Source: a virus (lineage: Duplodnaviria; Caudoviricetes). From it: 62,958 bases of DNA. Positions within the stretch are counted from its first letter, which is position 1. The number at the start of each line of letters is the position of its first letter. A program made the position numbers and the translations under genes. A model generated the notes under the pieces. The model did no database searches and was not told the DNA's origin. It was given only the letters and a program-made list of their open reading frames with translations. Shown here piece after piece: positions 2,941 through 61,083 of the stretch. The stretch spans positions 1-62,958 of the IMG/VR virus record IMGVR_UViG_3300044648_000169; one strand, 5' to 3'.

Positions 2941-3793
2941 TGCTCGCCTCCCCCTCGCTGCCGGCATGGCGAATGCCGAGCCATGCTGCATTCAGCTTTG
3001 ACTCAAGGTGGGCGCGCATACGGGCAAGACCCTCTTGGTTCATATGCCCCTCGCCTACGATGTCCCCGATGATCGACAACAGTTCGTTGTAGTCCGCCAA
3101 CCCCTCCCCCGCTCCACGCTGTGCCTGCCCTGCGGCCTCCACAACACCATCAATGGCCGCTACCGCCCCGCGCCGTGCTCGCCCGTCAGCGACGGGCCCC
3201 AGAAGCGCCTCACGAGCTTGGAACAGTGCTTTGTACCCACCGGCGGGAAGGGCGCCCCACTGCTTGTTGTCGCGGGCCCAGCGGAGCAGAGCGTTCACAT
3301 TGAGGGGCTGCCCTGCGGCTTGCTGGGGGGTGGCAACGCAACGACCTTCAATCTCGCAAGACATTGCATCCGGGCACGTTCCGTGAACCGAGCACTTCGG
3401 CCCCACCGCCTCGGCTTGCGCCCGCTGTGCTGGGGGATGGGAGGCTGCGACTTCGCGCCCCTTCCGGTCAGAGGCGATGAACTTGGCCGCCGCCCGGTAG
3501 CAGGCATTCCAGCCGTCGCGCCAGTCAGGTGGCACATGGGATGCGTCCGGGTGGAACGGCGCGAACTCGTTGCCGACCTTCCAATCCTGCCCCGCCGCTG
3601 GCTCATCGGGGGCGGGCTGAATGGTGCAGTACCGATAGTCCGTGTCGCGGCAGGCGCCTGGGGTGTCGCAGCGGTCGCAATACTTGCGTGGCGCCCCTTG
3701 AGCGGGCTCGGGGGCGGGCTGGGCGCGGAGGGCGGCAGGGGCCTGCTGTCTCGCGTGCTTAAAAAGCGCCTTCAATTGCTCGTTGATGCTCAC
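2933..3793 (-). CDS. hypothetical mosaic phage protein
   Basis: GTG start coupled to the upstream stop; Cys clusters, DGWNAC motif. Confidence 0.6.
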   Translation of the reverse strand: MSINEQLKALFKHARQQAPAALRAQPAPEPAQGAPRKYCDRCDTPGACRDTDYRYCTIQPAPDEPAAGQDWKVGNEFAPFHPDASHVPPDWRDGWNACYRAAAKFIASDRKGREVAASHPPAQRAQAEAVGPKCSVHGTCPDAMSCEIEGRCVATPQQAAGQPLNVNALLRWARDNKQWGALPAGGYKALFQAREALLGPVADGRARRGAVAAIDGVVEAAGQAQRGAGEGLADYNELLSIIGDIVGEGHMNQEGLARMRAHLESKLNAAWLGIRHAGSEGEASNG

Positions 3794-4571: not shown

Positions 4572-4819
4572 TGCTGCGGCTCCAGTTCGGGCCCGAGTGG
4601 CATGCAGCCTTCTTCGGGGTAGTCGGCCATGTAGGCGACGTGCTTGGTGAAGATGCGGCGGCCGGTCTCTTCGTCTTTGGTGCCGTCCTCCGGGCAGACG
4701 GCGATGACCACTTCAGCCTCTAGATCGTCGCCTTCGGGCAGGCTGTTCTGGTGAAGCGTGAGCCCGGCGAATCCGGCGAGGTCGATGATCTCGGCAATGG
4801 TCAGTTGAATCGCGCTCAT
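4568..4819 (-). CDS. hypothetical protein
   Basis: Coupled 83-aa ORF. Confidence 0.6.
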   Translation of the reverse strand: MSAIQLTIAEIIDLAGFAGLTLHQNSLPEGDDLEAEVVIAVCPEDGTKDEETGRRIFTKHVAYMADYPEEGCMPLGPELEPQQ

Positions 4820-5058
4820 TGCTTCACTCCATGCTTGGTAAGGGCGGCGCGGGCAAGGTTTCCTATGCGCGGCAGTTCAAGCCAGTCATCTGGCGTGGTC
4901 AGCCTCTCAATCGCCTGCAACGCTTCGCTCAGCGCCACAATGGCCTCGTGCTGGCGGCGGAGTTCGGCGGCGGCTTCGAGCCTCGCGCCAGGCCGGCTCG
5001 GCCATGGCCCTAAAAGGTCATCCGCCAACACCAGCGCCCTGGGCTTTGCTTCACTCAT
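4816..5058 (-). CDS. hypothetical phage protein
   Basis: MSEAKPRAL...AAAELRRQHE motif. Confidence 0.6.
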   Translation of the reverse strand: MSEAKPRALVLADDLLGPWPSRPGARLEAAAELRRQHEAIVALSEALQAIERLTTPDDWLELPRIGNLARAALTKHGVKQ

Positions 5059-5563
5059 GGTGGGCTCCTGTGGCGCGGGCGGCTCCAGATCCACCGCACG
5101 TCTCGCATGTCTGATAGCCGCCGCTGAATTGGCCACCGACAGTCCCCTCCCCATGGCAGTCGGGGCACTTCCCCTTGTCAATCCAGGCCTGGCGCTCAGC
5201 GATGTAGTCGGCGAGGAAACTGCGGGCCGCCGCTTCGGACGTCTTTTCCCGCTTCGGCGCGGCCGGCTGCTTGTCGGCGCCTTTGGGGTTCATCGCTGAA
5301 TCGATGGCGGCGCGGGCCTGCTGAACCTCAAGGTGGCTGTCATCACCACCAGAGCACCCGGCGAAGCGGAGAAGGCTCTCCAGCGCTTCACGCAACCTCG
5401 CCGCATCCATCCTCATCCGCTCCAGCTCTGCCTCAAGCGGGGCGAGGGCTGCGCGGGCGTAGGCGTGCATCTGTTCGGCGGTGAACACGTCGTACAAGTG
5501 GTCGTCAGCGTGGGTGCAGTACGAGTCGCACTCCGGCAGCGGCGGCAGTTCTGTCTTGGTCAT
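5051..5563 (-). CDS. hypothetical protein with C-terminal CxxCxGxG repeats
   Basis: MTKTELPPLP...AEQMHAYARA; CPDCHGEG...CETCGGSG. Confidence 0.6.
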   Translation of the reverse strand: MTKTELPPLPECDSYCTHADDHLYDVFTAEQMHAYARAALAPLEAELERMRMDAARLREALESLLRFAGCSGGDDSHLEVQQARAAIDSAMNPKGADKQPAAPKREKTSEAAARSFLADYIAERQAWIDKGKCPDCHGEGTVGGQFSGGYQTCETCGGSGAARATGAHHE

Positions 5564-5647
5564 GTGGGGGTGTCCTGTCTGCGATTTATGGTAGCACCGA
5601 TAATGCCGAATCATCAAGACTTTTCGTGCTACTGATAAGATGTGTGC

Positions 5648-7843: not shown

Positions 7844-8424
7844 GCCTTCTCCAGTTCCCGGCGCTTGGCCGCAAAGGTCCGCTTGATTTCCTTGAGGTCG
7901 TCCACGCTGTAGTGCCGTGGCGCTTGGTCGGACTCCAAGGCTTCGACGGCTTCGAGGCCGATGCGGGCGATGAGGCCAAGTCGGTAATCGACGGCCCGGC
8001 CGGCGCCCCACCGGTTGCACTGCTTTCGCTGGCCGTGGGCATTGGTCTCCACGAAGCGCAAGCCAGGCGCGCTGCCGACGCTGCGGTAGTGGCCGCAGTC
8101 GAACTTGCCTCCCACGTCGCCTGCGCTCAACGGCTGGCCGCAGCAGATGCAAGGCTTGCCGGCATCGCGGGCGCGGATGTAGGCGTTGAACTCGCGCTGA
8201 GCGGCCTTGATGTAGTCGCTGCGCGTGAGCAACTTCGCCTTGCGCTCGCGCAGCGCCTTGCGCTCCAGCACCTGCTGCCGCTTCTCTTCCTTGGCCCGCT
8301 CGGACTTGGCCAGGGACAGGGCGCAATCCACGCCGCAAACCTTGACCATGCTGTTGCGCGGCCAGAAAGGATTGCGGCAAACCTTGCAGGTCTTGTCTTT
8401 GAGCGGCTTGCGTTCGAGGGTCAT
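7840..8424 (-). CDS. ninG: NinG/Rap recombination endonuclease
   Basis: AQREFNAYIRARD..PCICCG...DCGHYRSVG..LRF..NAHGQ..CN. Confidence 0.9.
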   Translation of the reverse strand: MTLERKPLKDKTCKVCRNPFWPRNSMVKVCGVDCALSLAKSERAKEEKRQQVLERKALRERKAKLLTRSDYIKAAQREFNAYIRARDAGKPCICCGQPLSAGDVGGKFDCGHYRSVGSAPGLRFVETNAHGQRKQCNRWGAGRAVDYRLGLIARIGLEAVEALESDQAPRHYSVDDLKEIKRTFAAKRRELEKA

Positions 8425-13030: not shown

Positions 13031-13309
13031 CTAGGCCTCCAAAGCGGCGCGTTGCTTCTTGGCCCTCACAGCTTTTGGTGCGCCCGGCGCGCTGGCCAGT
13101 TCGGGCCAGATGGTTCGCCAGTCTTGTGGGCGCAGATCCCACCGCATCACCGCCCCGCCTGTCGCGGCCTCAATGGCCGAGCACCGACTTGCGGGCGCCG
13201 GCCTGGTGCCTGCAGCGATCTGGCTCAAGAATGACGACGGGATGCCAACCGCCGCTGCGAGGTCTTTCGCTCGCCCCTTCTGCTTTGCACACCAAGTCTG
13301 TAAGTCCAT
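13031..13309 (-). CDS. cro: Cro/YdaS-like HTH regulator
   Basis: LAAAVGIPSSFLSQIAAGTR...AIEAATGGAVMRWDLRP; divergent from cI. Confidence 0.85.
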   Translation of the reverse strand: MDLQTWCAKQKGRAKDLAAAVGIPSSFLSQIAAGTRPAPASRCSAIEAATGGAVMRWDLRPQDWRTIWPELASAPGAPKAVRAKKQRAALEA

Positions 13310-13315
13310 GTATAG

Positions 13316-13353
13316 ACTTTAGCATTGCAAAGTTTTCGATGCAAGCATTGCTT
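13316..13353 (-). promoter_or_regulatory. PR-like promoter with OR operators
   Basis: TTGCAT-17-TAAAGT overlapping AGCA(A/T)TGC palindromic operators. Confidence 0.75.
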
Positions 13354-13377
13354 CGTGCCGAAATCGACACTCAAGCG

Positions 13378-13980
13378 ATGCATATCGGGGAGCGGCTTAG
13401 AACGCTGGTCAAGGAGCGAGGGGTGGCGGTGAAGGCGTTGGCCTTGCACTGCGGCGTCACTACTGGCGCGGTCTCCAACTGGTTCCGCACCGGGCGGATT
13501 ACGAAGGAAAACCTGCTCGCTGCGGCCGAGTTCCTGGGGACCACAGCCGACGAGGTGATCTCAGGCGCCGCGCTTGATCGGTCGGCGCCCCAGGCGATGG
13601 CATCGCCCGCGTCAGCGCTCAACCTGCTCGCGCGAGCGTTGGCGGGGTTGCCCCGACTAGAGCGGCTTCAACTGGCCACGCTGCTTCCGTTGCTGGCAAC
13701 TGAGCCTGAGACCAGCCGGCAGACCATGCAGGCGATCCTGCGGCTGTTGGGGGCCGACCCCGTGGCCGCCGATGAGGTGGCGCGGGTGGACTTCAGTGAA
13801 CTTGCGCTGGACCTTGCAGAAAAGCTGGACGCCATTCCAGAGGGGCGGCGAGTTCGGGCGCACCGCGCTGCAAGCGTGGCGCTGTCACTGCAGGAGTTTC
13901 CCGACTCTGGCGATGCCACAGGCGACCGGCCCCCACCGCCAGGGCCGCGGCCTGGCTCGGGCTCGCGCAAACCGCGCTGA
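13378..13980 (+). CDS. cI: CI-like XRE repressor without S24 peptidase domain
   Basis: IGERLRTLVKERG...LALHCGVTTGAVSNWFRTG HTH; helical C-terminus with no GDSM/K peptidase motifs. Confidence 0.8.
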   Translation: MHIGERLRTLVKERGVAVKALALHCGVTTGAVSNWFRTGRITKENLLAAAEFLGTTADEVISGAALDRSAPQAMASPASALNLLARALAGLPRLERLQLATLLPLLATEPETSRQTMQAILRLLGADPVAADEVARVDFSELALDLAEKLDAIPEGRRVRAHRAASVALSLQEFPDSGDATGDRPPPPGPRPGSGSRKPR

Positions 13981-14293
13981 GTAGCCCGGCTTGGGCCAGT
14001 GGGGCGATCACGCTGCTCACCTCATCCAACGGCTGCTGGTCGACCAGGAGCACCGCCGGTCGACCGCCGGCCTGGGTCGCCCACGCCTCCAGCAGGAATC
14101 GCACGTCCCCGGGACAGAGTTGGAGCGCATGGCCGGCGTCAACCAGCAGGCACTCAGGCGGGCCGATCAAAAGGGCCCGTGAAATCGCCCGCTCAATTTC
14201 CGCCTCACAAATGCCCTGCTTCAGCGTGATGCGAACAACATCACGATATGGCTGATCGACCGTCCAAGCGTTTGATGGCGCGGTTCGTGGCAT
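13793..14293 (-). CDS. hypothetical alpha/beta (STAS/SpoIIAA-like) protein overlapping the cI 3' end
   Basis: GGGGGAA RBS; pattern VVRITLKQG...LLVDA...PAVLLVD; fold is my inference. Confidence 0.55.
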   Translation of the reverse strand: MPRTAPSNAWTVDQPYRDVVRITLKQGICEAEIERAISRALLIGPPECLLVDAGHALQLCPGDVRFLLEAWATQAGGRPAVLLVDQQPLDEVSSVIAPLAQAGLLSAVCASPSQAAALAVGAGRLWHRQSRETPAVTAPRLQRGAPELAAPLEWRPAFLQGPAQVH

Positions 14294-14346
14294 CAATTCC
14301 CCCTAGTGCTTTCCTGCACATTTTGCGGGGGCGGAAACACTTTGAC

Positions 14347-14366
14347 ACCTAGCAGAATTGCCGTCA
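14347..14366. promoter_or_regulatory. lux-box-like site A
   Basis: ACCTAGCAGAATTGCCGTCA; abuts the luxR1 ATG and overlaps GTGTCA-17-CAAAAT on the minus strand. Confidence 0.55.
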
Positions 14367-15115
14367 TGAAATCCCTACGTGATGTCTTGATCTCGGAGGC
14401 TTTGGGCGGCCTGGGTAGCGCTCAGACGGCGCCGGAGTTCGGCGCCCTCGCGGAAAAGCTCACAGAGGGTTTCGGCATGGATCGGTACATCGTGATCGAC
14501 GTGCGTAACGGCACCCTGGCGGGGCTGCACCACAACGCGCCTGCCCACTTGAGCGCCGACATCGAAAACCTTGCCACCGCGGATTCGGACCCGATCCTCG
14601 GGAAGGCCCGAGTTTCGCGGATGCCATTTGCATGGGGTCGCGGCGACGGCGGCCCCTGGCGCGAGGCATATGGCAGCTTGGGGTATCACTCGGGAATCGC
14701 GGGCGTGACCTGGGACGGCGTGGGCTCCGGTGTCATCGCCCTGTTCTCTTCGGAGGCTGATGGCCTGCCGGAGGAAATTATCGGCTCGCTGCTCGGCTTC
14801 GTGGTGTTGGCGGCCGTGACGATGAGCACGCCGCTGCGCCGTTTGGCGCCCAGACCGCTGGCCGAATGCCCTTTCACGGCGCGCGAACTGGACTGCCTGC
14901 GCTACGCGCTGGCCGGTAAGTCGTCAAAGGAAACGGCGCGCTCGCTGGGCATTGGCGCGCGGACCGTGAACCAATACCTCGAACGAGCGCGCACCAGGCT
15001 CCAGGTCAAGACCACCTACGCCGCTGCCACGATAGCGCTGCGGCGTGGGTGGATCGACATGCAGGAAGCGTCGGAGCTGGCCGGCTTAGTTCCCGCCGCC
15101 ACCGGTGCGCGGTAG
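14366..15115 (+). CDS. LuxR-family solo regulator 1 (autoinducer-binding domain + HTH)
   Basis: DP...PFAW...G..SG pocket; FTARELDCLRYALAGKSSKETARSLGIGARTV HTH. Confidence 0.9.
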   Translation: MKSLRDVLISEALGGLGSAQTAPEFGALAEKLTEGFGMDRYIVIDVRNGTLAGLHHNAPAHLSADIENLATADSDPILGKARVSRMPFAWGRGDGGPWREAYGSLGYHSGIAGVTWDGVGSGVIALFSSEADGLPEEIIGSLLGFVVLAAVTMSTPLRRLAPRPLAECPFTARELDCLRYALAGKSSKETARSLGIGARTVNQYLERARTRLQVKTTYAAATIALRRGWIDMQEASELAGLVPAATGAR

Positions 15116-15169
15116 GTCGGCCGGGTTGTAGTCGCGGATGCCAAGCAGTGCCAGCAGGAAATCAAACAT
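15086..15169 (-). CDS. 27-aa small peptide (absent from ORF track)
   Basis: GGAG-7nt-ATG; MFDFLLALLGIRDYNPADLPRTGGGGN*; downstream of lux-box-like site B. Confidence 0.55.
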   Translation of the reverse strand: MFDFLLALLGIRDYNPADLPRTGGGGN

Positions 15170-15249
15170 GGGTGGACTCCACAGAGGGTTGCGGTCAAAT
15201 CGACCGCTGTCCACTTTGAAGTCCCTAGCACGTTTCGCCTAGCTGCAAA

Positions 15250-15269
15250 ACCTGTCAGGTTTACCGTCA
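15250..15269. promoter_or_regulatory. lux-box-like site B
   Basis: ACCTGTCAGGTTTACCGTCA; 15/20 identical to site A; overlaps palindrome AAACCTGTCAGGTTT (15248-15262). Confidence 0.55.
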
Positions 15270-15287
15270 GTGACAACTGAGGTAGGC

Positions 15288-16004
15288 CTAGTCGATCAAG
15301 CCCCCTTGAATACAAGTGAGCACCGCGCCTTGCACGGAGCTGGCGCCCAGTTTGCGCGCAGCGCTGCGCTGCCGCCGGGCCACCTCTGGCTGGCTGATGA
15401 CCATGCGCTGACCCACCTGCCAGGCGGTGTACCCGTCCTTGGCCCAGCGCAGGCTTTCGAGTTCGCCGGCATCCAAGACCGGGCTACCTGCCGGGGTCGG
15501 GGTAGAAATCCGCTGCAGCGCTGACTGCGCGTGCAGCGTGACCATCTGCACGGCCGCCTGCAGGCGCATGCGGACCACCGGGTCGATCGGCAGCGCGTCC
15601 GGGCGATCGAAGCCCAGCAAGAACTGCTCGAGGTGGCTGGGCTCGTGCACGCTGCACGCTACCCCGCAGCGGTAGCCGAACGACGCCTGCAGATCCCATA
15701 GATCCACCGCGCCCGCTTCGACGTAGGTGGACTGGTCATACAGCACGGGGACGATGTTGGAGCGCAGAGCCCGGATGACCGGATCACGCAGGGCATCGCT
15801 CAGCGACTGCTGTGCCACGACATAGGCATCTGGGGTGTTGCCAACCCCGAGCATCCAGGCATTCGCGGATCCCATGGCGCCGCGGATCAGCACCGCCGAG
15901 AACAGGCCGAAGCCCAGCTCGTGTGCTGCTGACGTCAGGCGGGACCGCAGGGTGTCGACGTCCGGCGACAGTCCTAGATCCAGGAGTTGCTGCTGAGAGA
16001 GCAT
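15288..16004 (-). CDS. LuxR-family solo regulator 2
   Basis: NTPDAY...RDPV...PVLYDQSTY...DLWDLQASFGYRCG; ELESLRWAKDGYTAWQVG HTH. Confidence 0.9.
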   Translation of the reverse strand: MLSQQQLLDLGLSPDVDTLRSRLTSAAHELGFGLFSAVLIRGAMGSANAWMLGVGNTPDAYVVAQQSLSDALRDPVIRALRSNIVPVLYDQSTYVEAGAVDLWDLQASFGYRCGVACSVHEPSHLEQFLLGFDRPDALPIDPVVRMRLQAAVQMVTLHAQSALQRISTPTPAGSPVLDAGELESLRWAKDGYTAWQVGQRMVISQPEVARRQRSAARKLGASSVQGAVLTCIQGGLID

Positions 16005-16010
16005 GGACCG

Positions 16011-16343
16011 CTATTGCGACGGAGTCCCGCCCTGTCTGCAATCGTAGTTGCCCTTGATGTTGGCGAGGTAGTAGCGCCCTAGGGACGGCGATGAACGCCA
16101 CGCCGCCACGGTCTCTGGCGGCATGCGGCAGTAGTGATACCAAGTGCCCTTGAGGTTCACCAGCAGGTAGCGGTCCGACAGCTTCCAGCAGGTACGCCAG
16201 ACCAGCGAGCTGGGTTGCTCCACGCAGTTGAAGCCCTTCAGGTCGACCTCGCCGTGGTACTTCACGAAAACCGTCTCGGCCGACGCGCCCATAGGCGCCA
16301 ACGCGAGCGCGGCCAGCATCACTTTCGTTCTCAGTGGTCCCAT
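16011..16343 (-). CDS. KTSC-domain protein with signal peptide
   Basis: Hydrophobic N-terminus ending ASA; SSLV...YHYCRMP...SLGRYYLANIKGNY. Confidence 0.75.
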   Translation of the reverse strand: MGPLRTKVMLAALALAPMGASAETVFVKYHGEVDLKGFNCVEQPSSLVWRTCWKLSDRYLLVNLKGTWYHYCRMPPETVAAWRSSPSLGRYYLANIKGNYDCRQGGTPSQ

Positions 16344-16403
16344 AGCCCCTCCCTGGGTTCGCTCGATTCTTCCGGCCTAAGGGTAAGCCTGCACGGATTT
16401 TTG

Positions 16404-16443
16404 TTCAGCAATGCTTGCCATCAATACTTTGCATTGCTAAACT
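16404..16443 (+). promoter_or_regulatory. PL-like promoter with OL operators
   Basis: TTGCCA-17-TAAACT with the same GCA(A/T)TGCT operators and layout as PR. Confidence 0.75.
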
Positions 16444-16483
16444 CTCTTCCGTCGCACCCAACTTCCCCGCCGGGGATGGTGCG

Positions 16484-16708
16484 ATGGGAGCAAGGGTCAT
16501 GCAGCACCACGCCTACACGCCATGGGAAGTGCAGATGCTCACCAGGGCGCAGCCGAGGCGCTTCCATGTTGCGCGGCAGGTCGAGGACGGAACGTGGTCC
16601 TCGCCGCACTGGGAGCAGATGCCGGCGGCCGATGGTGGCATCGCCAGGTTTGAAACCGCCGAAGAGGCCCGCGCTGCCATCGCCGCGGATGCCGGGGTCG
16701 CCGCATGA
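16484..16708 (+). CDS. hypothetical early protein
   Basis: First ORF after PL; RFETAEEARAAI. Confidence 0.55.
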   Translation: MGARVMQHHAYTPWEVQMLTRAQPRRFHVARQVEDGTWSSPHWEQMPAADGGIARFETAEEARAAIAADAGVAA

Positions 16709-53484: not shown

Positions 53485-56400
53485 ATGCCGATTGCACGCT
53501 TTGAACTGCCAGACGGTCGCATCGGCCGCTTCGAGGTGCCGGACGGCACGAGCGAGGACGATGCGATCTCCCTGATACAGCAGCACCTGGCCGACAACCC
53601 GGTGGCAGACAAGGCCGCGCGCCCGCTGCCCGAAGGCGTGACGCCATCGGATGCCGGCGCCGGCCGCGGCAGCGTGCGCCCGCACGGCCCGACGCTGCGT
53701 GAACGGCTGTTCGATCCCAGCGTGCGAACCGCCCCGCAGCCTGTCCAGCGCCGCGGCGGCACGCGGTCGGAGGCTCGGCCGTTCGTGGCCACCGGGCGCG
53801 ACACCACGGCAGCCGAAGTAGGCGAGGCCATCGGCGGAACCCTGGCCGGCACAGCGGCCCTGGGCATGGAGAAGGGCCTGGGGGTCATGCTGGACCTGCA
53901 GAACAGCGAAGGCCGCGAGCCCGAGGCGCCGCCGCTGGACAACGCGCTGGAAGAACCGCCCGCCTACCCGCCGAACCAGCAGGAGGCGATTGCCCGGCAG
54001 AGCCTGCGCCCGGAAGTTGCCCAGCGCCGAGCGCGCGAGGCCAGCGCGCCGGCCGAGGCCCGGCCGTTCTCCACCGGCCAGAACATGGCCACCGACGTGC
54101 GCGAGGCCACGCAGAACCCGGTGGCGCGCGGCGTCGCGCAGGGCATTGGAACCATCGGCAAGGTGGGCCCGGGCGCACTGCGCATTGCGGCCGACTTCCT
54201 CGGCTCTGAGGGTCTGGGCGACCTGGCCAAGGCATCCGGCCGCGCCGCGGATGAGTTCTCCGGTGGCGTCACCAGCGATCTCAAGGGCAACGACAAGCTG
54301 GTGGCGCAGATCACCGGCTCCATCGTCAACTCGGCGCCTTCGCTCGCGCTGGGCGTGGTCGGCGGCCCGGCCCTCAAGACCCTCTTTGTCCAGTCCGCCC
54401 TGTCGGAATACAACGCCGGCCGCGATGCCGGGTTCGCGCCGGAAGAATCTCTGATGCGGGCCGGCATCATGGGCTTCGCCGAGGCCATCGGCGAACGCGC
54501 GGGCTTCCCTGAGCAGATCAAGCTGCTGAAGTCCCTGGCCAAGCACGTGCCCACCGATCGCCTATCGAAGGTCTTCGGCGACATGCTGGCCAAGGAGATC
54601 CCGGGCGAACAGTTGACCACCGCCCTGCAATTCATGGCGGACAAGGCGGGCCCGGCGGCGCTGAGCCCGGACGCCACGCTGGCCGACTACCTGGACCAGG
54701 CCGGCGAGACCCTGAAGGTCACCATCGGCCAGACGGCGGTGATGGGCGGCGGCCCGGCGGCGGTCGGCACCACGCGCAACGCGCTGCGCAAGGCGGACGC
54801 CGGTGCCACGTCGGCCGCGCCAGACCCCGCGGTGATCCTGGCCAGCGCCATCGACCAGGCCGCCAACGACTTCGGCCTGAGCCCCAAGGCCACCGCCGCG
54901 CTGCGGGACAAGGCCAACACCATGCCCGCCGAACAGGCCGCGGGCTTCGTGGAGCGCGCGCTGGCCGAGTTCGAGCGCGGCAACCTGGTGCGCAAGCCCG
55001 GCGCGGCGGCCGGCTTCAAGCAGACCCTGAACGACCTGGCCGAGAAGGCGCAGGCCGAAGCCGAGTCCCAACCGGCCGAGCCGGAAGCAGCGCCCGCGCC
55101 CGAAGCCGCACCAGAGCAAACGCGCTTCGACGCTGGCGCCATGCTGGAAGGCGACGACTTCAGCGGACTGGACACCCCGGCGCAAGCCGGCCCGGCAATG
55201 ACCGCCCCGGGTTCAAGTGCGGTCGAAGAAGGAAGCCCCGATGCAGAAGTAGAAGCCATTGATTCGTCGTCGACAGCGGCGCAGGTAGGAGTGCCTGCGT
55301 CGCCCATCGAAGGCGAGCCCATCAATCGCAACTGGTCGGCTTTCACACCCGAATCCGGCAGCCTTGGCATTCCCAGGGAGCAGATGCCCCAGGTGAAGGC
55401 TGAGCACCGAGGCGCGCTCACCAACTTCCTGAACGCCCGCGGCATCACACACGAATCCGGCGAGGTGCCGGCGCATGTGCTGCGCCCGACGCAAGCCGAG
55501 TTCTCGCCCCGCAAGGTCGAGCAGGCCGCCGACTTCACCGGCGGCAACCGGGCCGTGCTGGTGAGCAAGGACGGTTTCATCATCGACGGCACCCACCAGT
55601 GGGCGGCCGCCCGCGAGGCCGGCGCGGCGATCAAGGTGATCCGCTTCGACGCCCCCATTCAAGACCTGCTGCGCCTGGCCCAGCAGTTCCCCAGTTCGTT
55701 CTCATCGGGAGGTGCCAGCCGTGCTGGAAGTGGACCTGGATATGCCGAGCCTGCCGGACCTGCTGGAGCAGGGGCTGCTGACCCAGATGCAGGCGGACGA
55801 ACTGAACCACTGGTTCAAGGCGAGCTGCAACAGCCGGTACCCGCTGGAACTGCCGGAACCCCTGTACCGGGCCCTGCTGTACGCGACGGCGCTGGCGCAG
55901 ATGGACCTGGAGCGGGAAACGATGCACTGACGGTCGGCGCCGCGGTGGAGTTGGGCGGCAAGCCCTACACCGTCAAGGCCAAGAGCCCGAAGGTCATCCG
56001 CCTGACTGGCGAGGACGGCAAGGTCCGGGTCATCAGCAGCGACTCGGCCAACTGGTCGAAGATCAAGCCAGCGACTGCGAAGCCAGCAGCCCCCACCGAA
56101 GAATTCGCCGGCAAGCATGGCGAAGGCATGGCCGAGCACGTCGCCAAGGCCAACGCCATCCGCCTGCGCAAGGAGCGCCCGGACCTTGAATGGACCGTGG
56201 CCGAAGCCGACCCCGCCCGTAACCCCAAACTGAAAGCCGACCGCTATGTCGTTCAGGGCCGCCCGCTTCAACCCCAAGCCCCGGCAGCAGAAGCAGGAGC
56301 GCAGGCGGGAGGCGTGGAGCCGGCAGGATCAGCAGGAGAGGCCGCTGCCGCTTCCGGATCCGCCCAGGTGGAAGCCGATGGGCTGAGGGCGCAGCCGGCG

Positions 56401-59400
56401 CGCAAGACCCCGACCACCGCCCGCAGCAAGGCCCCGAAGGCGAAGAAGGCGCGCAAGGTCATGGACTCCTGGGTGCTGGGCGAGATCGTCCACCGACTGG
56501 GCGGCATCGGGCTGGGCCTGCGGGCGGACCTGTCCAGCAAGGCGCTGCGCGAGCGCACCAACAAGACAACCGGCAAGGTGACCCAGTACACCGCCTGGCG
56601 CGGCGACGGCATGCTGTTCCGCGCCACCGGATCGACCGACCTGACCGAGATTGCGCAGGTGCTGGAAGAGGCCGGGTTCCTGGAGCCCGGGCTGGTGGAG
56701 CGTGACTACCTCGAGGCCACCAGCCGGGTGCAGGACATCATCAAGGCCGAGATCGCCAAGCCCGGCAGCACGCAGGCATTCGGTGCGATCGAGGACCAGG
56801 CGCGCCAGCGCGATGAAGACGCCCGAGCCGAGCACGAGGAACGCGAACAAGCCGAACTGGACGAGTGGCTGCACGGCGAACTCGACATTCAGGCCGCCAA
56901 CCTCCCCGCCGAACCGGAGGCGCACAATACCGCCCTGGAACTGGCCCGCCTTCTGAACGAAGCGGCCGAAGCCGGCGTTGACGTCGACTCACTGAAGGAC
57001 GACTTCTTTGCATCGTCCGATCCCGAATGGAGCCAGGAAGCCTATGACACCCGCCTTGCCCAAACTCTCCGTGACGCTGCCGCCCGAACTCGTGTCGAAG
57101 CTCGACGCGATGACACCGGAACTGCGCGAGCAGACGATCCAGTCAGCCGCCCGGCTGGCGTCGATCAAACTCGGGCGCCGGGTGACGGGGCAAATGGACC
57201 TGACGATGCCATTCGATCCGAAGAAGAAGCCCGCCCAGGGCTGACCCTCGCCGCCGAGACCCCGGCCGACGCTCAGGCCAAGGCCGCCCGCGAAGCCGAA
57301 GCCCTCGCCTCAGAGCGGAAGGCCAAAGACGCCGAGCAGGCGCGGCTGAAGAAGGAAGCCGACGAGCGCGAGGTGCGCGCCCGGGCGGATTCCAGCGTCG
57401 ATGACTTCCAGCTCGGGCAGAGCGCGGATCAGCAGTTGTCGGGGCAGCGGGACATTTTCAGCGCCTCGCCGCCACCCAAGCGCCAAACCAAGGTCACGCC
57501 GCAGGTCCCCAGCGCCAGCCAACTCGCTTCCTTCATTGGCATCGCCGCGGACTCGGCGCAGGCGCTGCGGCGCTCGGATGTTGAACGCGTCTTGCGCGAG
57601 GCGCCGGTGCACTTCCGCGTCGGGCTCGCAGCCCACATCCAAGCCAGGCGGCCGGATCTCACTGACGAGGTGGACGAGGTGCTGGCGGAACTGAACCAAG
57701 CACCGCCGCAAATGAAGCGCGGCACCAGCGCCGGCCTGCCCCTGGCCACCGCCCGCAAGACCATCGCCGCCTTTGAGGCCCAGGGTGTGCGCAAGGTCAA
57801 CCTCGCCGCCACCCTGGCCGACATGCCCCAGGCCCGGCGCGACGCCATCCTGGCGACCGACCCGAGCGGCCGGGTGCGCGGCGCGTACTTCCCTAGCGCC
57901 GATGAGGTGTGGGTGATCGCCGAGAACCTGGGCAGCGAGCGCGAGCTGGTCGACGTGGTGCTGCACGAGTCCTTCCACCGCGGCCTGCACGTCACCTTCG
58001 GCGCCGATGGCGCCAAGCTGCTGCGGCAAATCTACGCCACCAACAAGAGCGTGCGCGTGCTGGCCGACAAGCAGATGGAGCGCTTCGGCCTGAGCAAGGA
58101 AGAGGCGACCAACGAAGCCTTGGCAGACTTGGCCATGACCAACCAGGTGCAGAACCTGAACGGCTGGACCCGGCTGCTGCGCATGATCCAGGCCTGGCTC
58201 GGCAAGATCGGCCAGGCGCTGGGGATCGAGTTGAAGTTCACCGACAAGATGGTGGTGGACCTGATCGCCGGGATGACGCGTGCGGGCCTGCAGCCGAACG
58301 TGGCGCCGGCGCCCGACACCAGCAAGCAGGACCGGGCCGCCGCCATCAGCGAGCAGGTGGCTGAGGGCAAGAGCTTTGCGGAGGCCACCAGCGAGGTGGC
58401 GTTGAGCCGCAAACCCAGCTACACCCCCGAGCAGAAGGCCGCCCTGGGCAAAGCCGGCGTGTCCGGTCCCGTGTCCCTGAAGGGCAAGCTGCAGCGCCAC
58501 TACAGCGCGGCGATGAACCTGCTGGCCGACCGGCACGCGCTGGCGGCCGAAGCGCAGCAGGGCCTGCTGGACCAGTTCACCGGCATCAAGCGTGCCGTGC
58601 AGCGCGACGTGGGCAACCTGCCGGTGGAGCAAGACCCCTACGTGGCGGCCCGGCTCGCCAACGGCGGCGCCTCTTCGGTGATGCGCGCCCTGCTGCTGCA
58701 CGGCCAGGCGAAGTGGGCGGCCAACGGCCAGCACCTCGAGAAGATCGACGGCACCAAGGGCCTGCTGGACATCCTCGCCCCGCTGGGCGACGACCTGAAC
58801 GACTGGTTCGGCTGGATGATCGGCAACCGCGCCGCGCGCCTGATGGGCGAGGGCCGGGAAAACAACTTCACCCCTGCCGACATCAAGGCGCTGCGGTCCC
58901 TGGCCACGCCAGCGAAGAAGGCGGCATTCCAGAAGGCGGCCCTGCAGTACGCCGCCTTCAAGCGCTCGGTGCTCGACGTGGCCCAGGACGCAGGCCTCAT
59001 CAACGCTGAGGCGCGCAAGGCCTGGGACTACGCCGACTACATCCCCTTCTATCGCCAGATCGACGAGAAGTCGACCTTCAGCCCCACCGGGCGCAAGGGC
59101 CTGGCCGGGCAGTCGTCGGGCATCCGCTCGCTCAAGGGTGGCGAGAACGCGCTGAACGACCCGATGGAGAACCTGCTGATGAACTTCAGCCGGTTGATCG
59201 ACGCCAGCCTGAAGAACAACGCCTTGCGCAAGACCGTCGACACCCTGAAGGCGGCCAAGTCCGACGCGGTGGTGAAGATCGGCTACGACATGACGTCGCA
59301 ACTGATCCCGGCCGAGCAGGTGAAGCAGCGGCTGGTGGAGGCGGGAACGCCGCAGCAGATCCTGGACGTGATCCCGCCCGAGGCCTTCGACGGCATGGCC

Positions 59401-61083
59401 AAGATGTGGGCGGTGCAGGCTCCGAGCGACCCGGACGTGATCCGCCTCATGGTCGACGGCAAACCACAGTTCTACCGGGTGGAAGACCCCCTGCTGCTGA
59501 AGGCGCTGACCAGCTTTGTGCCGTTCGACTTCCCCGGCCTTGGAATGATGCGGTGGTTCAAGCGCCTGCTGACCAGCACGGTCACGGCGGCCCCGGACTT
59601 CGTGGCCCGCAACTTCATCCGGGACACGGTGGCGGCGCAGATGATCACCCGCGACGGGTTCAACCCGGGCAAGTCGCTGCAGGGGGTGGCCAAGTCCCTG
59701 CGCGAGAGCGGCGGGTTCGAGCACATGCTGTTCGCCGGCGCGAGCTTCCAAAGCGGCAATGTCAACGCGGCCGACCCAACCGGGACCGGCCGAGCCATCC
59801 GGCGGGCGCTGCGGAAGAAGGGCTTTGACGCCTCGTCCGTCGACGCATTCACGGGCTCGGTCATCGACACCGGCCTGAAATTCTGGGAGAAGTACCGGCA
59901 CTTCAGCGAGGCGATCGAGAACGCCAACCGCGAAGCGGTGTTCGATGCAGCAACCAAGGGCGGCAAGACCGTCACGGCGGCGGCCTTCGAGTCCAAAGAC
60001 CTTATGGATTTCTCGCTGCGCGGCTCGTGGGCGGCCTACCAGATCCTCGCCGACGTGGTGCCGTTCCTGAACGCCCGCGTGCAAGGCCTGTACCGCCTGG
60101 GGCGCTCCGATCCCAAGCGCGTGGTGGTGCTGGGCCTGCTGATGACCGCGGCCACCCTGGCGCTGGCGTGGGCCAACGACGGCAACGACGAGTACGAGGG
60201 CCTGGCAGACTGGGACAAGGACACCTACTGGCACTTCTGGATCGGCGGCGAGCACTTCCGCTTGCCGAAGCCGTTCGAGCTGGGCGTGGTCTTCGCCACC
60301 ATCCCCGAGCGGGTGATGCGCTTCGCGCGTGGCCAGGACGGCGGCGGCAAGACCGCCGGCCGGCTGTGGGCCAACGTGCGCGACCAGTTTGCCTTCGACC
60401 CGGTGCCGCAGATGATCCGCCCGTGGATGAACGTGTGGGCCAACAAGGACACCTTCCGCGGAACCCCCATCGAGGGCATGGCCGACGAAGGCAAGCCGCC
60501 GCACCTGCGTTACTCGGCCAGCACCTCAGAAACCACCCGGGAACTGCTGGACCTGACCAAGCCGGTCACCGACCCGCTGGCCCTGAGCCCGAAGAAGCTG
60601 GAGTACCTGGTGAACGCCTACACCGGCGCCGCCGGCTTCTACGCCCTGGCCCTGTCCGACATTGCCGTACGCGCCATGACCGACGCCCCGCCGCAGCCCG
60701 AGATGCGCGCCGACGACATCCCTGTGGTCAAGGCCTTCTACCGGGTCAACCCGGCACGTGGCACGGTTTGGGAGAGCGACCTGTACGACATGCGCGCGGC
60801 GGCCGAGGAAATCTACCGCGGGGTCAAGGCGCTGGAGCGCGAGGGTGACCTGGAGCGCGCCACCGAACTGACCGAGGACAACTTGGACAAGCTCGGCGCC
60901 CGCACGGTGCTAGACGAGGCCGGCAAGCGCCTGGCGGGGATCAACAAGCAGCGCGACAAAATCTACCGCGACCCGGACATGAGCCCGGCCGAGAAGCGCC
61001 AGCAGCTCGATGAACTGCTGAAGCTCAAAGCCGAGATCGCGCGCAACGCGGTGGAGCACCCGGCCGTGACCGAGGCCTTCTGA
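53485..61083 (+). CDS. large polyvalent internal virion protein (ParB-like, HExxH metallopeptidase-like, C-terminal LPD38-like)
   Basis: LRPTQAEF...IIDGTHQW; VLHESFH; PFLNARVQG...WDKDTYW...LPKPFELG. Confidence 0.85.
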   Translation: MPIARFELPDGRIGRFEVPDGTSEDDAISLIQQHLADNPVADKAARPLPEGVTPSDAGAGRGSVRPHGPTLRERLFDPSVRTAPQPVQRRGGTRSEARPFVATGRDTTAAEVGEAIGGTLAGTAALGMEKGLGVMLDLQNSEGREPEAPPLDNALEEPPAYPPNQQEAIARQSLRPEVAQRRAREASAPAEARPFSTGQNMATDVREATQNPVARGVAQGIGTIGKVGPGALRIAADFLGSEGLGDLAKASGRAADEFSGGVTSDLKGNDKLVAQITGSIVNSAPSLALGVVGGPALKTLFVQSALSEYNAGRDAGFAPEESLMRAGIMGFAEAIGERAGFPEQIKLLKSLAKHVPTDRLSKVFGDMLAKEIPGEQLTTALQFMADKAGPAALSPDATLADYLDQAGETLKVTIGQTAVMGGGPAAVGTTRNALRKADAGATSAAPDPAVILASAIDQAANDFGLSPKATAALRDKANTMPAEQAAGFVERALAEFERGNLVRKPGAAAGFKQTLNDLAEKAQAEAESQPAEPEAAPAPEAAPEQTRFDAGAMLEGDDFSGLDTPAQAGPAMTAPGSSAVEEGSPDAEVEAIDSSSTAAQVGVPASPIEGEPINRNWSAFTPESGSLGIPREQMPQVKAEHRGALTNFLNARGITHESGEVPAHVLRPTQAEFSPRKVEQAADFTGGNRAVLVSKDGFIIDGTHQWAAAREAGAAIKVIRFDAPIQDLLRLAQQFPSSFSSGGASRAGSGPGYAEPAGPAGAGAADPDAGGRTEPLVQGELQQPVPAGTAGTPVPGPAVRDGAGADGPGAGNDALTVGAAVELGGKPYTVKAKSPKVIRLTGEDGKVRVISSDSANWSKIKPATAKPAAPTEEFAGKHGEGMAEHVAKANAIRLRKERPDLEWTVAEADPARNPKLKADRYVVQGRPLQPQAPAAEAGAQAGGVEPAGSAGEAAAASGSAQVEADGLRAQPARKTPTTARSKAPKAKKARKVMDSWVLGEIVHRLGGIGLGLRADLSSKALRERTNKTTGKVTQYTAWRGDGMLFRATGSTDLTEIAQVLEEAGFLEPGLVERDYLEATSRVQDIIKAEIAKPGSTQAFGAIEDQARQRDEDARAEHEEREQAELDEWLHGELDIQAANLPAEPEAHNTALELARLLNEAAEAGVDVDSLKDDFFASSDPEWSQEAYDTRLAQTLRDAAARTRVEARRDDTGTARADDPVSRPAGVDQTRAPGDGANGPDDAIRSEEEARPGLTLAAETPADAQAKAAREAEALASERKAKDAEQARLKKEADEREVRARADSSVDDFQLGQSADQQLSGQRDIFSASPPPKRQTKVTPQVPSASQLASFIGIAADSAQALRRSDVERVLREAPVHFRVGLAAHIQARRPDLTDEVDEVLAELNQAPPQMKRGTSAGLPLATARKTIAAFEAQGVRKVNLAATLADMPQARRDAILATDPSGRVRGAYFPSADEVWVIAENLGSERELVDVVLHESFHRGLHVTFGADGAKLLRQIYATNKSVRVLADKQMERFGLSKEEATNEALADLAMTNQVQNLNGWTRLLRMIQAWLGKIGQALGIELKFTDKMVVDLIAGMTRAGLQPNVAPAPDTSKQDRAAAISEQVAEGKSFAEATSEVALSRKPSYTPEQKAALGKAGVSGPVSLKGKLQRHYSAAMNLLADRHALAAEAQQGLLDQFTGIKRAVQRDVGNLPVEQDPYVAARLANGGASSVMRALLLHGQAKWAANGQHLEKIDGTKGLLDILAPLGDDLNDWFGWMIGNRAARLMGEGRENNFTPADIKALRSLATPAKKAAFQKAALQYAAFKRSVLDVAQDAGLINAEARKAWDYADYIPFYRQIDEKSTFSPTGRKGLAGQSSGIRSLKGGENALNDPMENLLMNFSRLIDASLKNNALRKTVDTLKAAKSDAVVKIGYDMTSQLIPAEQVKQRLVEAGTPQQILDVIPPEAFDGMAKMWAVQAPSDPDVIRLMVDGKPQFYRVEDPLLLKALTSFVPFDFPGLGMMRWFKRLLTSTVTAAPDFVARNFIRDTVAAQMITRDGFNPGKSLQGVAKSLRESGGFEHMLFAGASFQSGNVNAADPTGTGRAIRRALRKKGFDASSVDAFTGSVIDTGLKFWEKYRHFSEAIENANREAVFDAATKGGKTVTAAAFESKDLMDFSLRGSWAAYQILADVVPFLNARVQGLYRLGRSDPKRVVVLGLLMTAATLALAWANDGNDEYEGLADWDKDTYWHFWIGGEHFRLPKPFELGVVFATIPERVMRFARGQDGGGKTAGRLWANVRDQFAFDPVPQMIRPWMNVWANKDTFRGTPIEGMADEGKPPHLRYSASTSETTRELLDLTKPVTDPLALSPKKLEYLVNAYTGAAGFYALALSDIAVRAMTDAPPQPEMRADDIPVVKAFYRVNPARGTVWESDLYDMRAAAEEIYRGVKALEREGDLERATELTEDNLDKLGARTVLDEAGKRLAGINKQRDKIYRDPDMSPAEKRQQLDELLKLKAEIARNAVEHPAVTEAF
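55721..55930 (+). CDS. overprinted small protein 1 (+1 frame)
   Basis: GGAGG-8nt-GTG; about 63/69 codons end in G/C by manual count. Confidence 0.6.
   Translation: MLEVDLDMPSLPDLLEQGLLTQMQADELNHWFKASCNSRYPLELPEPLYRALLYATALAQMDLERETMH
56246..56386 (+). CDS. overprinted Arg/Gln-rich peptide 2 (+1 frame)
   Basis: MSFRAARFNPKPRQQKQERRREAWSRQ...; GC3 bias shifts to this frame; weak RBS. Confidence 0.35.
   Translation: MSFRAARFNPKPRQQKQERRREAWSRQDQQERPLPLPDPPRWKPMG
57044..57244 (+). CDS. overprinted small protein 3 (+1 frame)
   Basis: AGGAAG RBS; MTPALPKLSVTLPPELVSKLDAM...; GC3 bias in this frame. Confidence 0.5.
   Translation: MTPALPKLSVTLPPELVSKLDAMTPELREQTIQSAARLASIKLGRRVTGQMDLTMPFDPKKKPAQG

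Follow-up and report, generated by a model that had tools for sequence, protein, structure and literature searches.

A LuxR-type regulator pair, two putative overlapping operator frames and a small peptide gene in the immunity region of a temperate tailed phage

Phage LuxR receptors are already known, as are modules that pair a transcription factor with a small open reading frame (smORF). In the Aeromonas phages Apop and ARM81ld, binding and activation of the smORF promoter require LuxR together with an XRE protein (Silpe et al. 2023; PMC10432266), and the smORF product inactivates a cI repressor that does not autocleave. Phage quorum-sensing receptors are known from few cultured systems, and in the best-studied phage LuxR case the co-operation of two transcription factors at the smORF promoter is still unsolved. 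Discussed here is a related locus in a virus record of 62,958 nucleotides, IMGVR_UViG_3300044648_000169 (Duplodnaviria; Caudoviricetes), the whole of which is termed the window. Its subject is two 20-mers, Box A and Box B, that lie close to two genes of LuxR-type proteins, luxR1 and luxR2. An original prediction, made from the letters alone, read both 20-mers as operators of a LuxR1/LuxR2 heterodimer with AND-gate logic.

As in Apop and ARM81ld, the window phage has a LuxR-type receptor gene beside a tiny unannotated open reading frame (ORF) near the repressor, and this arrangement of transcription-factor gene and small ORF is kept in nine of the nine loci that have LuxR1. The differences are several. 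The partner in the window is a second LuxR-type protein and not an XRE protein; the smORF is downstream of luxR2 and convergent with luxR1, whereas the smORFs of Apop and ARM81ld are divergent; and phages of the window type are integrase phages of Burkholderiales, while the other two are linear plasmid phages. The Apop smORF is 156 nt in length, but those of the window type have 16–27 codons, are homologous to chromosomal peptides and are known here from sequence. New, therefore, are the LuxR-type regulator pair, the apparent two-frame overlapping operator and a smORF with chromosomal homologues. The locus offers a compact, sequence-defined case of two LuxR-type proteins and two overlapping operator frames on one palindromic core, for which bacterial relatives that have the symmetric frame alone and a single regulator represent a natural control.

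The canonical lux box, as found at V. fischeri luxI and in the las/rhl and tra boxes, is a 20-bp CTG-N10-CAG dyad upstream of a weak promoter without a good -35. The window dyad similarly adjoins a regulator gene, where luxI usually sits. Unlike in the canonical system, the gene downstream encodes a small peptide and not an acyl-homoserine lactone (AHL) synthase, and an asymmetric frame overlaps the dyad. VisN and VisR of Sinorhizobium are a LuxR-type pair with ligand-binding-like N-terminal domains and are thought to act together, but visN and visR are adjacent, co-oriented and control motility, whereas the window genes are convergent. BglJ–RcsB and GadE–RcsB are heterodimers that act on an RcsAB-type box. 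RcsA and RcsB, both of which have a LuxR-type helix-turn-helix (HTH), also bind the RcsAB box as a heterodimer, as a section of PMC5829831 describes. The putative heterodimer of the window would resemble Rcs in that two different LuxR/GerE-type HTH proteins share one operator, and a homodimer may also take the site. The Rcs proteins differ from LuxR1 and LuxR2 in being a response regulator and an auxiliary protein, not ligand-binding receptors.

The relevant features of the locus are as follows.

14347..14366, plus strand: Box A; its minus-strand reading is TGACGGCAA (flank, H3) plus TTCTGCTAGGT (lux half, H2), and it abuts the luxR1 ATG
15250..15269, plus strand: Box B; distal half of the canonical box (ACCTGTCAGGT) plus a phage-specific flank, TTACCGTCA
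15241..15260, no strand assigned: canonical lux-type box AGCTGCAAAACCTGTCAGGT (signature CTG-N10-CAG), with its centre at about -44 and a distance of 71 nt to the smORF ATG
15213..15218, minus strand: -10-like hexamer CAAAGT of the predicted smORF promoter, 22 nt after the canonical box
15086..15169, minus strand: smORF of 27 codons, MFDFLLALLGIRDYNPADLPRTGGGGN, with the Shine–Dalgarno (SD) sequence GGAG; its 3′ 30 nt overlap the 3′ end of luxR1 on the opposite strand
14366..15115, plus strand: luxR1, TraR-like LuxR-type regulator (GerE 1.9e-11), with no SD before the ATG
15288..16004, minus strand: luxR2, RhlR/LasR/SdiA-like LuxR-type regulator (Autoind_bind 6.2e-13, 48.9 bits)

The letters and coordinates originally given for the two boxes are exact; both are on the plus strand, and they are identical at 15 of 20 positions (75%). 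Each box is upstream of a minus-strand ORF, as was claimed: Box A precedes orf166 (14293–13793) and Box B the 27-codon ORF (15169–15086). Box A also abuts the luxR1 start, its final base being the A of the luxR1 ATG (14366), and it stands between luxR1 and orf166, which are divergent. Box B, by contrast, is not upstream of a luxR gene. Because luxR1 (plus) and luxR2 (minus) are convergent it lies downstream of luxR2, 19 nt past the stop codon.

A degenerate pattern taken from both copies is found at two places only in the window (0.02 expected; none of 100 shuffles give two), a test that is circular. A non-circular test employs a weight matrix built from five sites, all from other phage loci. 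Over the whole window and both strands, this independent matrix places Box B first (30.4 bits) and Box A second (20.7 bits), and 30 shuffles show a mean of 11.3 and a maximum of 16.0 bits. The view that both 20-mers are conserved regulatory elements of the phage lysis–lysogeny region is supported. The third window match is at 8372–8391 on the plus strand (TTGCGGCAAACCTTGCAGGT) and scores 12.5 bits, which is within the range of the shuffled controls, so it is probably a chance match.

Relatives in the protein collection number 46 for LuxR2 and nine for LuxR1, several on shared contigs. The loci gathered consist of seven viral, six metagenome and two genome loci, as well as 29 from genomes in the family to which the Pelomonas genome belongs. 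A LuxR2-like gene is present at an expectation value (E) of 1e-40 or less in 70 of 301 sampled Pelomonas/Roseateles-family genomes. A convergent LuxR1 partner is found in nine loci (the window, L003–L009 and L031, the last being the nearest relative in a cultured genome, a prophage of G116 that has a cro-like gene) and is absent in the remaining 39 loci examined. A LuxR1-profile search of the 301 genomes gives 15 places; 13 are LuxR2-family genes, one is the G116 prophage partner, and the remaining place (G005:C51) is outside the examined set. Single-protein pattern scans for LuxR1 in the genome and viral contigs show no relatives. Among the places examined, luxR1 appears to be phage-restricted.

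At site B the 20-mer does not make up the whole operator. A complete dyad, CTG-N10-CAG, is present there at 15241–15260 and shares the CTGTCAG core. This box has CTG at positions 3–5 and CAG at 16–18, the lux-box dyad, which is found in neither Box A nor Box B, and it is identical at 17 of 20 positions to the Pelomonas chromosomal box AGCTGGCAAACCTGCCAGGT (L017). The lux-box signature CTR-N10-YAG was searched in up to 95 nt, 40–135 nt upstream of the peptide ATG. It is present in 34 of 34 unique loci without LuxR1 and in six of the nine with it (chance, 5.4% per shuffled region), and its distance to the peptide ATG is always 63–83 nt. In these counts the duplicates L013, L018 and L020 enter once, and L010 and L015 (truncated loci) and L021 (which has no LuxR2) are excluded.

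A third stretch thought to be related to the boxes, CACTTTGAAGTCCCTAGCA, is indeed present at 15212–15230; however, it is not a third box but the -10/leader segment of the small-ORF promoter, and the CAAAGT hexamer lies inside it. A hexamer nAnAGT begins 21–23 nt past the canonical box in 21 loci. Loci with the long form of the peptide gene, described below, have by eye a TnnAAT-like hexamer (TGAAAT, TGGAAT, TTCAAT) in the same position. The box-to-hexamer spacing of 22 nt would place the centre of the canonical box near -44, as expected of a class-II lux box. Since site B has a complete symmetric box, a host-like sequence and class-II spacing, a heterodimer would not be required there, and a LuxR2 homodimer could explain activation at this site.

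Other explanations of the site were tried and dropped. The nAnAGT hexamer 30–31 nt past Box B was regarded as a class-I arrangement until the canonical frame was found. Box B has no T-run and is ruled out as a luxR2 terminator; the boxes are ruled out as cI operators, as the operator-like 16-mers described below differ from them; and no luxI-like gene is present downstream of the box. Scoring the best 20-bp dyad without constraints fails to separate the loci (6.4 where luxR1 is present, 6.7 where it is absent, 6.4 by chance), and the CTR-N10-YAG test was used in its place.

As proposed, one half of the 20-mer is a genuine lux half-site (CTGnCAGGT), and the other is conserved and non-symmetric (TGWMCGKTAA on the minus strand, 9–10 bp). 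The motif is also conserved in homologous loci, one of the points on which the original prediction was to stand or fall. When the matrix is jackknifed, so that no locus contributes its own sites to its score, at least 16 bits are reached in seven of nine LuxR1 loci; the best site in L006 has 13.2 bits, and L005 has no site of 11 bits or more. The control loci without LuxR1 (302,993 nt) contain no match of 14 bits or more, the maximum being 13.1. A flank-plus-core pattern, CG[GT]?[TC]AW-N2-4-CT[GT]NNAG, is found in six of nine LuxR1 loci and in none of 34 others (chance, 0.15% per region). A second site, present in five of the nine LuxR1 loci (the window, L003, L004, L007 and L009), is at the luxR1 start codon or no more than about 12 nt from it, and its flank always faces luxR1. 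This recurrence fits the suggestion of autoregulation by Box A at the luxR1 start.

The consensus of 11 sites is TGTMCGTAAWYCTGNCAGGT, in which G6, A8, T13, A17 and G18 are invariant. Complementarity about its centre is 0.19, near chance, and locally only the heptamer CTGnCAG forms a strong dyad (0.56). The element thus consists of two unlike half-sites at dimer spacing, which are separately conserved in the 11 sites; the CAGGT half occupies the register that is normal for a right half. At site B the two frames are offset by 9 bp, which leaves an overlap of 11 bp. CTGnCAG contains both CTG and CAG, and can therefore serve the asymmetric frame as its right half and the symmetric frame as its left. 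The anatomy of the locus, its conservation, the finding that the flank is confined to loci with LuxR1, and the spacing of the promoter elements are direct observations.

Site A has additional features.

14338..14357, no strand assigned: overlapping second frame, CTG-N10-AAG, with one mismatch to the lux dyad; contains CACTTTGA, which the original prediction matched to 15212–15219
14320..14325, minus strand: -10-like CAAAAT, 21 nt past Box A; part of a candidate orf166 promoter
13793..14293, minus strand: orf166, gene of a STAS-fold protein, downstream of Box A, with the SD GGGGGA

The second frame is weak and is not conserved in L004. The CAAAAT hexamer is found at an identical distance in L004.

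Both proteins have the properties of LuxR-type receptors, i.e. a C-terminal GerE/LuxR HTH and an N-terminal autoinducer-binding fold. For LuxR1, GerE has 43.8 bits (Pfam cut-off 23.5) and Autoind_bind 19 bits, under the cut-off. The LuxR1 profile matches full-length TraR in the PDB (4.7e-19), and a model with a predicted local distance difference test score (pLDDT) of 88 has two domains, with Foldseek matches to TraR, QscR and SdiA across both. Weak NCBIfam matches to VisR (3.3e-07) and VisN (9.6e-07) are far under cut-offs. For LuxR2, GerE is at 19.6 bits, under the Pfam cut-off, and the family profile aligns end-to-end with RhlR and LasR, including the HTH (RhlR 3.7e-22, PDB). The recognition helices are unlike (...GARTVNQYLERARTRL in LuxR1, ...SQPEVARRQRSAARKL in LuxR2), which makes different half-site preferences of LuxR1 and LuxR2 plausible.

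The canonical aromatic residues of the AHL pocket, Trp and Tyr before Asp-Pro (W68 and Y72 of RhlR), are present in neither LuxR2 nor LuxR1. The W68 and Y72 columns have Tyr and Gln in the LuxR2 family (Y61 and Q65 in the window), and D74, P75, W103 and G114 are kept; in LuxR1 the same TraR columns align with aliphatic residues. With these pocket aromatics replaced, the ligand may not be an AHL.

Taken as a whole, the locus can be read as a captured luxR2–box–peptide cassette with an added luxR1 and a composite operator that has two overlapping frames at site B, a reading for which confidence and doubt are about evenly balanced. A cassette of luxR2, lux box and peptide gene would have been acquired from a host lineage and placed between cI and the rightward early promoter. 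The phage line would then have added luxR1, which converges on the peptide gene, and beside luxR1 the STAS-fold gene orf166, which runs into cI. The 20-mers would be copies of the composite operator, with a LuxR2-type half on CTGnCAG and the unlike TGWMCGKTAA half at normal lux-box spacing. Which protein binds which site, whether it activates or represses, and what the effect on cI might be, we infer from the sequence. A LuxR2 homodimer on the symmetric frame (15241–15260, about -44) would switch on the smORF promoter, as presumably occurs in the bacterial relatives. The asymmetric frame (Box B, centred at about -53) would be read by a LuxR1-containing dimer, most simply one in which LuxR1 takes the odd half and LuxR2 the lux half. 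A LuxR1/LuxR2 heterodimer is plausible for this frame, which recurs at the luxR1 start in five of nine loci; as a definite assignment it is tentative, and the balance of opinion leans somewhat away from it.

With an overlap of 11 bp, occupancy of the two frames would be mutually exclusive, and LuxR1 would tune or gate LuxR2. At site A only the asymmetric frame is good, and the same complex would both autoregulate luxR1 and control orf166, the transcript of which would be antisense to cI. No terminator-like site was found after the smORF, so transcription would run on, antisense to luxR1, towards orf166. The probable target of the output (smORF, orf166 and antisense transcription into both luxR1 and cI) is a non-cleavable cI, as in phage modules of transcription factor and smORF. 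A cI-like protein without a detectable self-cleavage domain fits induction through an anti-repressor.

It should be pointed out that a number of observations weigh against the composite-operator reading. The association of flank and LuxR1 comes from a single phage clade and may be one evolutionary event, and the flank-plus-core pattern was composed after the sites had been seen. A clear flank is missing in three LuxR1 loci, namely L005, L006 and L009 (B site). The L009 B site is a palindromic CTACAA-N4-TTGGTAG box that is overlain by a reversed asymmetric site, and L003, L004 and L005 have no exact canonical dyad, with CTG-N9-CAT in its place. In addition, the A and B flanks differ at four of nine bases in L004 and in L007, and several loci have a flank that forms a short palindrome of its own (TACGTA), unlike a LuxR half-site. 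A sigma-70 consensus promoter scan shows nothing at either box, and the -10 of site A is ambiguous, with CAAAGT 2 nt and CAAAAT 21 nt past the box.

The strict form of the original prediction makes the 20-mer the sole operator at both promoters, bound by an obligate LuxR1/LuxR2 heterodimer as a pure AND gate. It accounts for a LuxR2-type half and a distinct conserved half at normal lux-box spacing, for a flank confined to loci with luxR1, and for the class-II spacing of Box A, 21 nt from a -10-like hexamer. Apop and ARM81ld also need two transcription factors, as related in the part of PMC10432266 concerned with them. However, a complete symmetric, host-like box with class-II spacing lies 9 bp downstream at site B, the 20-mer frame is more distant from the -10 by roughly a helical turn, and bacteria without LuxR1 use the same promoter with the symmetric box alone; an obligate heterodimer at both promoters is considered quite unlikely. 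Perhaps LuxR1 acts alone, as a homodimer or monomer, and is a repressor or anti-activator that blocks LuxR2 at the overlapping lux box and, with no heterodimer involved, represses luxR1 as well. Sites A and B share the 20-mer frame rather than the canonical one; in five of nine loci the A site lies over the luxR1 start, as is typical of autorepressors; luxR1 is convergent with and antisense to the smORF in nine of nine; and an expanded dyad, CTG-N13-CA[GT], can be read by eye in most sites. Yet we know of no N13 spacing for LuxR-type dimers, the 20-mer has no dyad symmetry about its centre, and half of it is a LuxR2-type half-site. Action of LuxR1 alone is unlikely.

There is also the question of whether the non-lux flank is a regulator site at all. 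At site A it might belong to the promoter and translation start of luxR1, possibly leaderless, and at site B to the luxR2 3′ end; it might instead act through RNA pairing between the luxR2 3′ untranslated region and the luxR1 start region, or be a relic of duplication: luxR1 has no SD and has AGAAT 7–8 nt before its ATG in the window and L004, the window flank at B complements the 9 nt before the luxR1 ATG (one G-U pair), and site A reads as site B minus about 27 nt, as if by duplication and internal deletion. But the discordance of the A and B flanks in L004 and L007 speaks against RNA pairing, the position beside CTGnCAG is conserved at the B sites of six loci that have no luxR1 start nearby, and the invariant G6 and A8 in 11 sites suggest sequence-specific reading; a non-regulatory flank is improbable. 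That the 20-mers are alike by chance and functionless is hardly credible. Short two-copy repeats are common, and many of similar length are present in the window, but the boxes are the top two window matches to a matrix from other loci, they are above all 30 shuffles, and their position is conserved in related phages.

The orf166 product has no Pfam, NCBIfam or PHROG match. Its family has 19 representatives at E of 1e-3 or less, itself included, and no Pfam match. The model has a pLDDT of 84, and the best Foldseek matches are anti-sigma-factor antagonists/STAS (E 4.3e-4); the STAS matches in ranks 1–15 have target-normalised template modelling (TM) scores of 0.59–0.69. A C-terminal tail, ...WR...PG....H at the end, is conserved. 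The 3′ 188 nt of orf166 overlap the cI 3′ end on the opposite strand, in convergent orientation, and L004 is similar (194 nt).

The unit past each LuxR2-like gene has a constant order: stop codon, lux-type box, -10-like hexamer, structured leader, and SD with small ORF. Homologous SD-bearing small ORFs are found in all nine LuxR1 loci and in bacterial loci, and in an alignment of 12 sequences P20 and G23 are invariant. The window smORF has no match in Pfam, NCBIfam or PHROGs; a lone NCBIfam hit, PA2485 at E 0.052, is not credible. A short form, present in the nine LuxR1 loci and about a dozen bacterial loci, has 16–27 codons, an amphipathic start and the end ...[GS][ILV]-P-[RYV]-x-G-[GF]. A long form, in 19 bacterial loci, has 48–79 codons, a double-glycine-type leader (...LD...L..V.GG) and a core of 7–12 residues ending P[KR]xGW or LPRVGGW, with repeated cores in some. 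The box ahead of the long-form peptide gene is palindromic, with the consensus CCTGTAAGAGTTGACAGTT (L028–L050, L051–L056).

Double-glycine leader peptides of the ComC and colicin V types are exported by C39-peptidase ABC transporters and an HlyD partner. The bacterial smORF relatives are similar in their ...L..V.GG leaders and in the HlyD and Peptidase_C39-ABC genes that come after them, but they are associated with a LuxR-type receptor and not a two-component system, and the short cores end in GW. In six of the six long-form regions fetched, the peptide gene is followed by genes of about 415 and about 720 codons. These are identified as exporter genes by Pfam in L051 (HlyD_3 3.3e-10; Peptidase_C39 1.2e-34, ABC_membrane 2.8e-41 and ABC_tran 2.8e-31), and in the other five are judged to be such from similar N-terminal sequences. 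The short-form bacterial regions L012, L016, L017, L057 and L058 have no such large-gene pair after the peptide gene. The window smORF is without a GG leader, and no exporter gene is seen in the phage.

The bacterial set of LuxR, box, peptide and exporter looks like a peptide signal or bacteriocin system under LuxR control, and the family seems to be undescribed. A full-text search, supplements excluded, found no paper on it. A 2023 review of LuxR solos (PMC10134790), searched by term, does not mention HlyD or bacteriocin, and its sole peptidase entry, in a table, concerns proline iminopeptidase. One LuxR solo, PipR, has been recorded as responsive to peptides or to an ethanolamine derivative (PMC4981722; PMC10134790). 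The smORF homologues in non-prophage chromosomal loci argue that the peptide may also have a function unrelated to cI.

This raises the question of whether the luxR2–box–peptide unit is a Gram-negative peptide autoinduction circuit that phages captured and rewired with a second LuxR, a proposal that must be regarded as doubtful. An altered-pocket LuxR receptor would control, and perhaps sense, a ribosomal short peptide (core ...P[RK]xG[GW]), which would be exported through C39-peptidase ABC/HlyD in host genomes that mostly have no LuxI match. A LuxI-family match at E of 0.001 or less is found in 11 of the 70 LuxR2-bearing genomes (seven at E of 1e-18 or less), and 59 of these possibly incomplete genomes have none. 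The phage version would have receptor, box and leaderless peptide in the immunity region, and the phage would listen to or imitate the host peptide signal. If the peptides are signals, they would represent a new kind of Gram-negative cell–cell communication tapped by phages. Such a circuit, if true, would be a proteobacterial counterpart of arbitrium-type or eavesdropping phages in the choice between lysogeny and lysis.

Genome G116 has two related units. The chromosomal one (L073, 1194–1379, minus strand) encodes a precursor with two APKSGW cores, and the smORF of the prophage unit (L031) ends LPRTGGGW; from these ends, phage and host peptides appear chemically alike. In L004 an insert of about 0.9 kb (4715–5616), which includes a zinc-ribbon-like ORF of 72 codons and another ORF that has an HNH-like motif, is situated between the luxR2 stop and the box, and the box–smORF unit is therefore separable from luxR2. 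Beside the LuxR2-like gene of one short-peptide locus, L057, a protein encoded at 3235–3726 (minus strand) has a weak match to DUF4902 (E 2.9e-4, 21.2 bits; cut-off 25), which we take to be the RsaM/TofM family of quorum-sensing modulators.

The leader of the smORF is the following.

15172..15214, minus strand: structured leader; GTGGAC (15214–15209) pairs with GTCCAC (15177–15172), with an inner hairpin at 15207–15191

The GTCCAC arm overlaps the SD GGAG (15180–15177). Leaders were folded singly (minimum-energy fold), and that of the window has -20.3 kcal/mol and a z-score of -3.6. Eight of the nine phage-type leaders pair the -10/discriminator segment with an SD-proximal segment around an inner hairpin, L007 being the exception. 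The letters of the paired arms differ from locus to locus (window, L003–L009, L031), and z-scores are -2.1 to -5.9. RNAalifold on a MAFFT alignment of the nine leaders gives 0 pairs, the alignment being out of structural register.

Transposase synthesis of IS10 and IS50 is limited by fold-back inhibition of translation on read-through transcripts. The window is similar in that a segment upstream of the gene's own start complements the ribosome-binding region, and only transcripts from the proper promoter would be translatable. It differs in that the upstream arm overlaps the -10/discriminator of a predicted LuxR-dependent promoter. A transcript starting 6–8 nt past the -10 would lose the upstream arm, while luxR2 read-through RNA would carry the arm, with masking of the SD. 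Thus the leader could keep luxR2 read-through transcripts untranslated.

The window is an entire IMG/VR virus record with a completeness rating of 97% and a G+C content of 66.8%. Its phage genes include an integrase (61757–62788), the small and large terminase subunits, a portal protein and a major head protein, together with RecT and exonuclease, primase/helicase and replication-initiator genes, and from this gene content it is a temperate tailed phage. Searches of 50,697 GenBank phage records with DNA and protein gave no match, and these have no relative of LuxR1 or LuxR2. Among sequencing runs, the locus is listed for two DNA runs and for no RNA run. The host is probably a member of the Pelomonas/Roseateles-type group of Burkholderiales, because the LuxR2 relatives are located in Roseateles, Pelomonas and Piscinibacter genomes. 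There are no Rfam matches at E of 1 or less within 13900–16500. The neighbouring features are:

13031..13309, minus strand: cro-like gene (YdaS/HTH; Pfam YdaS_toxin 4.4e-11), which heads the replication-side early operon, with replication genes further left
13318..13333, plus strand: operator-like 16-mer TTTAGCAWTGCAAAGT in the cro/cI intergenic region
13339..13980, plus strand: cI-like repressor gene (Pfam HTH_3 3.9e-06)
16011..16343, minus strand: gene of a KTSC-domain protein (Pfam KTSC 6.8e-09) with a signal-peptide-like N-terminus, 6 nt upstream of luxR2
16415..16443, plus strand: sigma-70-like promoter, 9/12 matches with a TG extension; start of the rightward early operon (RecT and others)
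16426..16441: inverted second copy of the 16-mer, which overlaps the sigma-70-like promoter

A Pfam search of the cI-like protein shows no S24 peptidase domain, and no peptidase family at E of 0.01 or less. The KTSC gene is not found beside luxR2 in other loci; in the window it and luxR2 probably form one operon. The 16-mer has just two matches in the window (0.14 expected; two of 100 shuffles reach two). The two inverted copies bracket the entire cI–luxR cassette and are probably cI/cro operators.

Late in the structural region there is a single ORF of 2,532 codons (53485–61083, plus strand). In the C-terminal third it matches PHROGs that have no known function and one with the annotation DNA methyltransferase.

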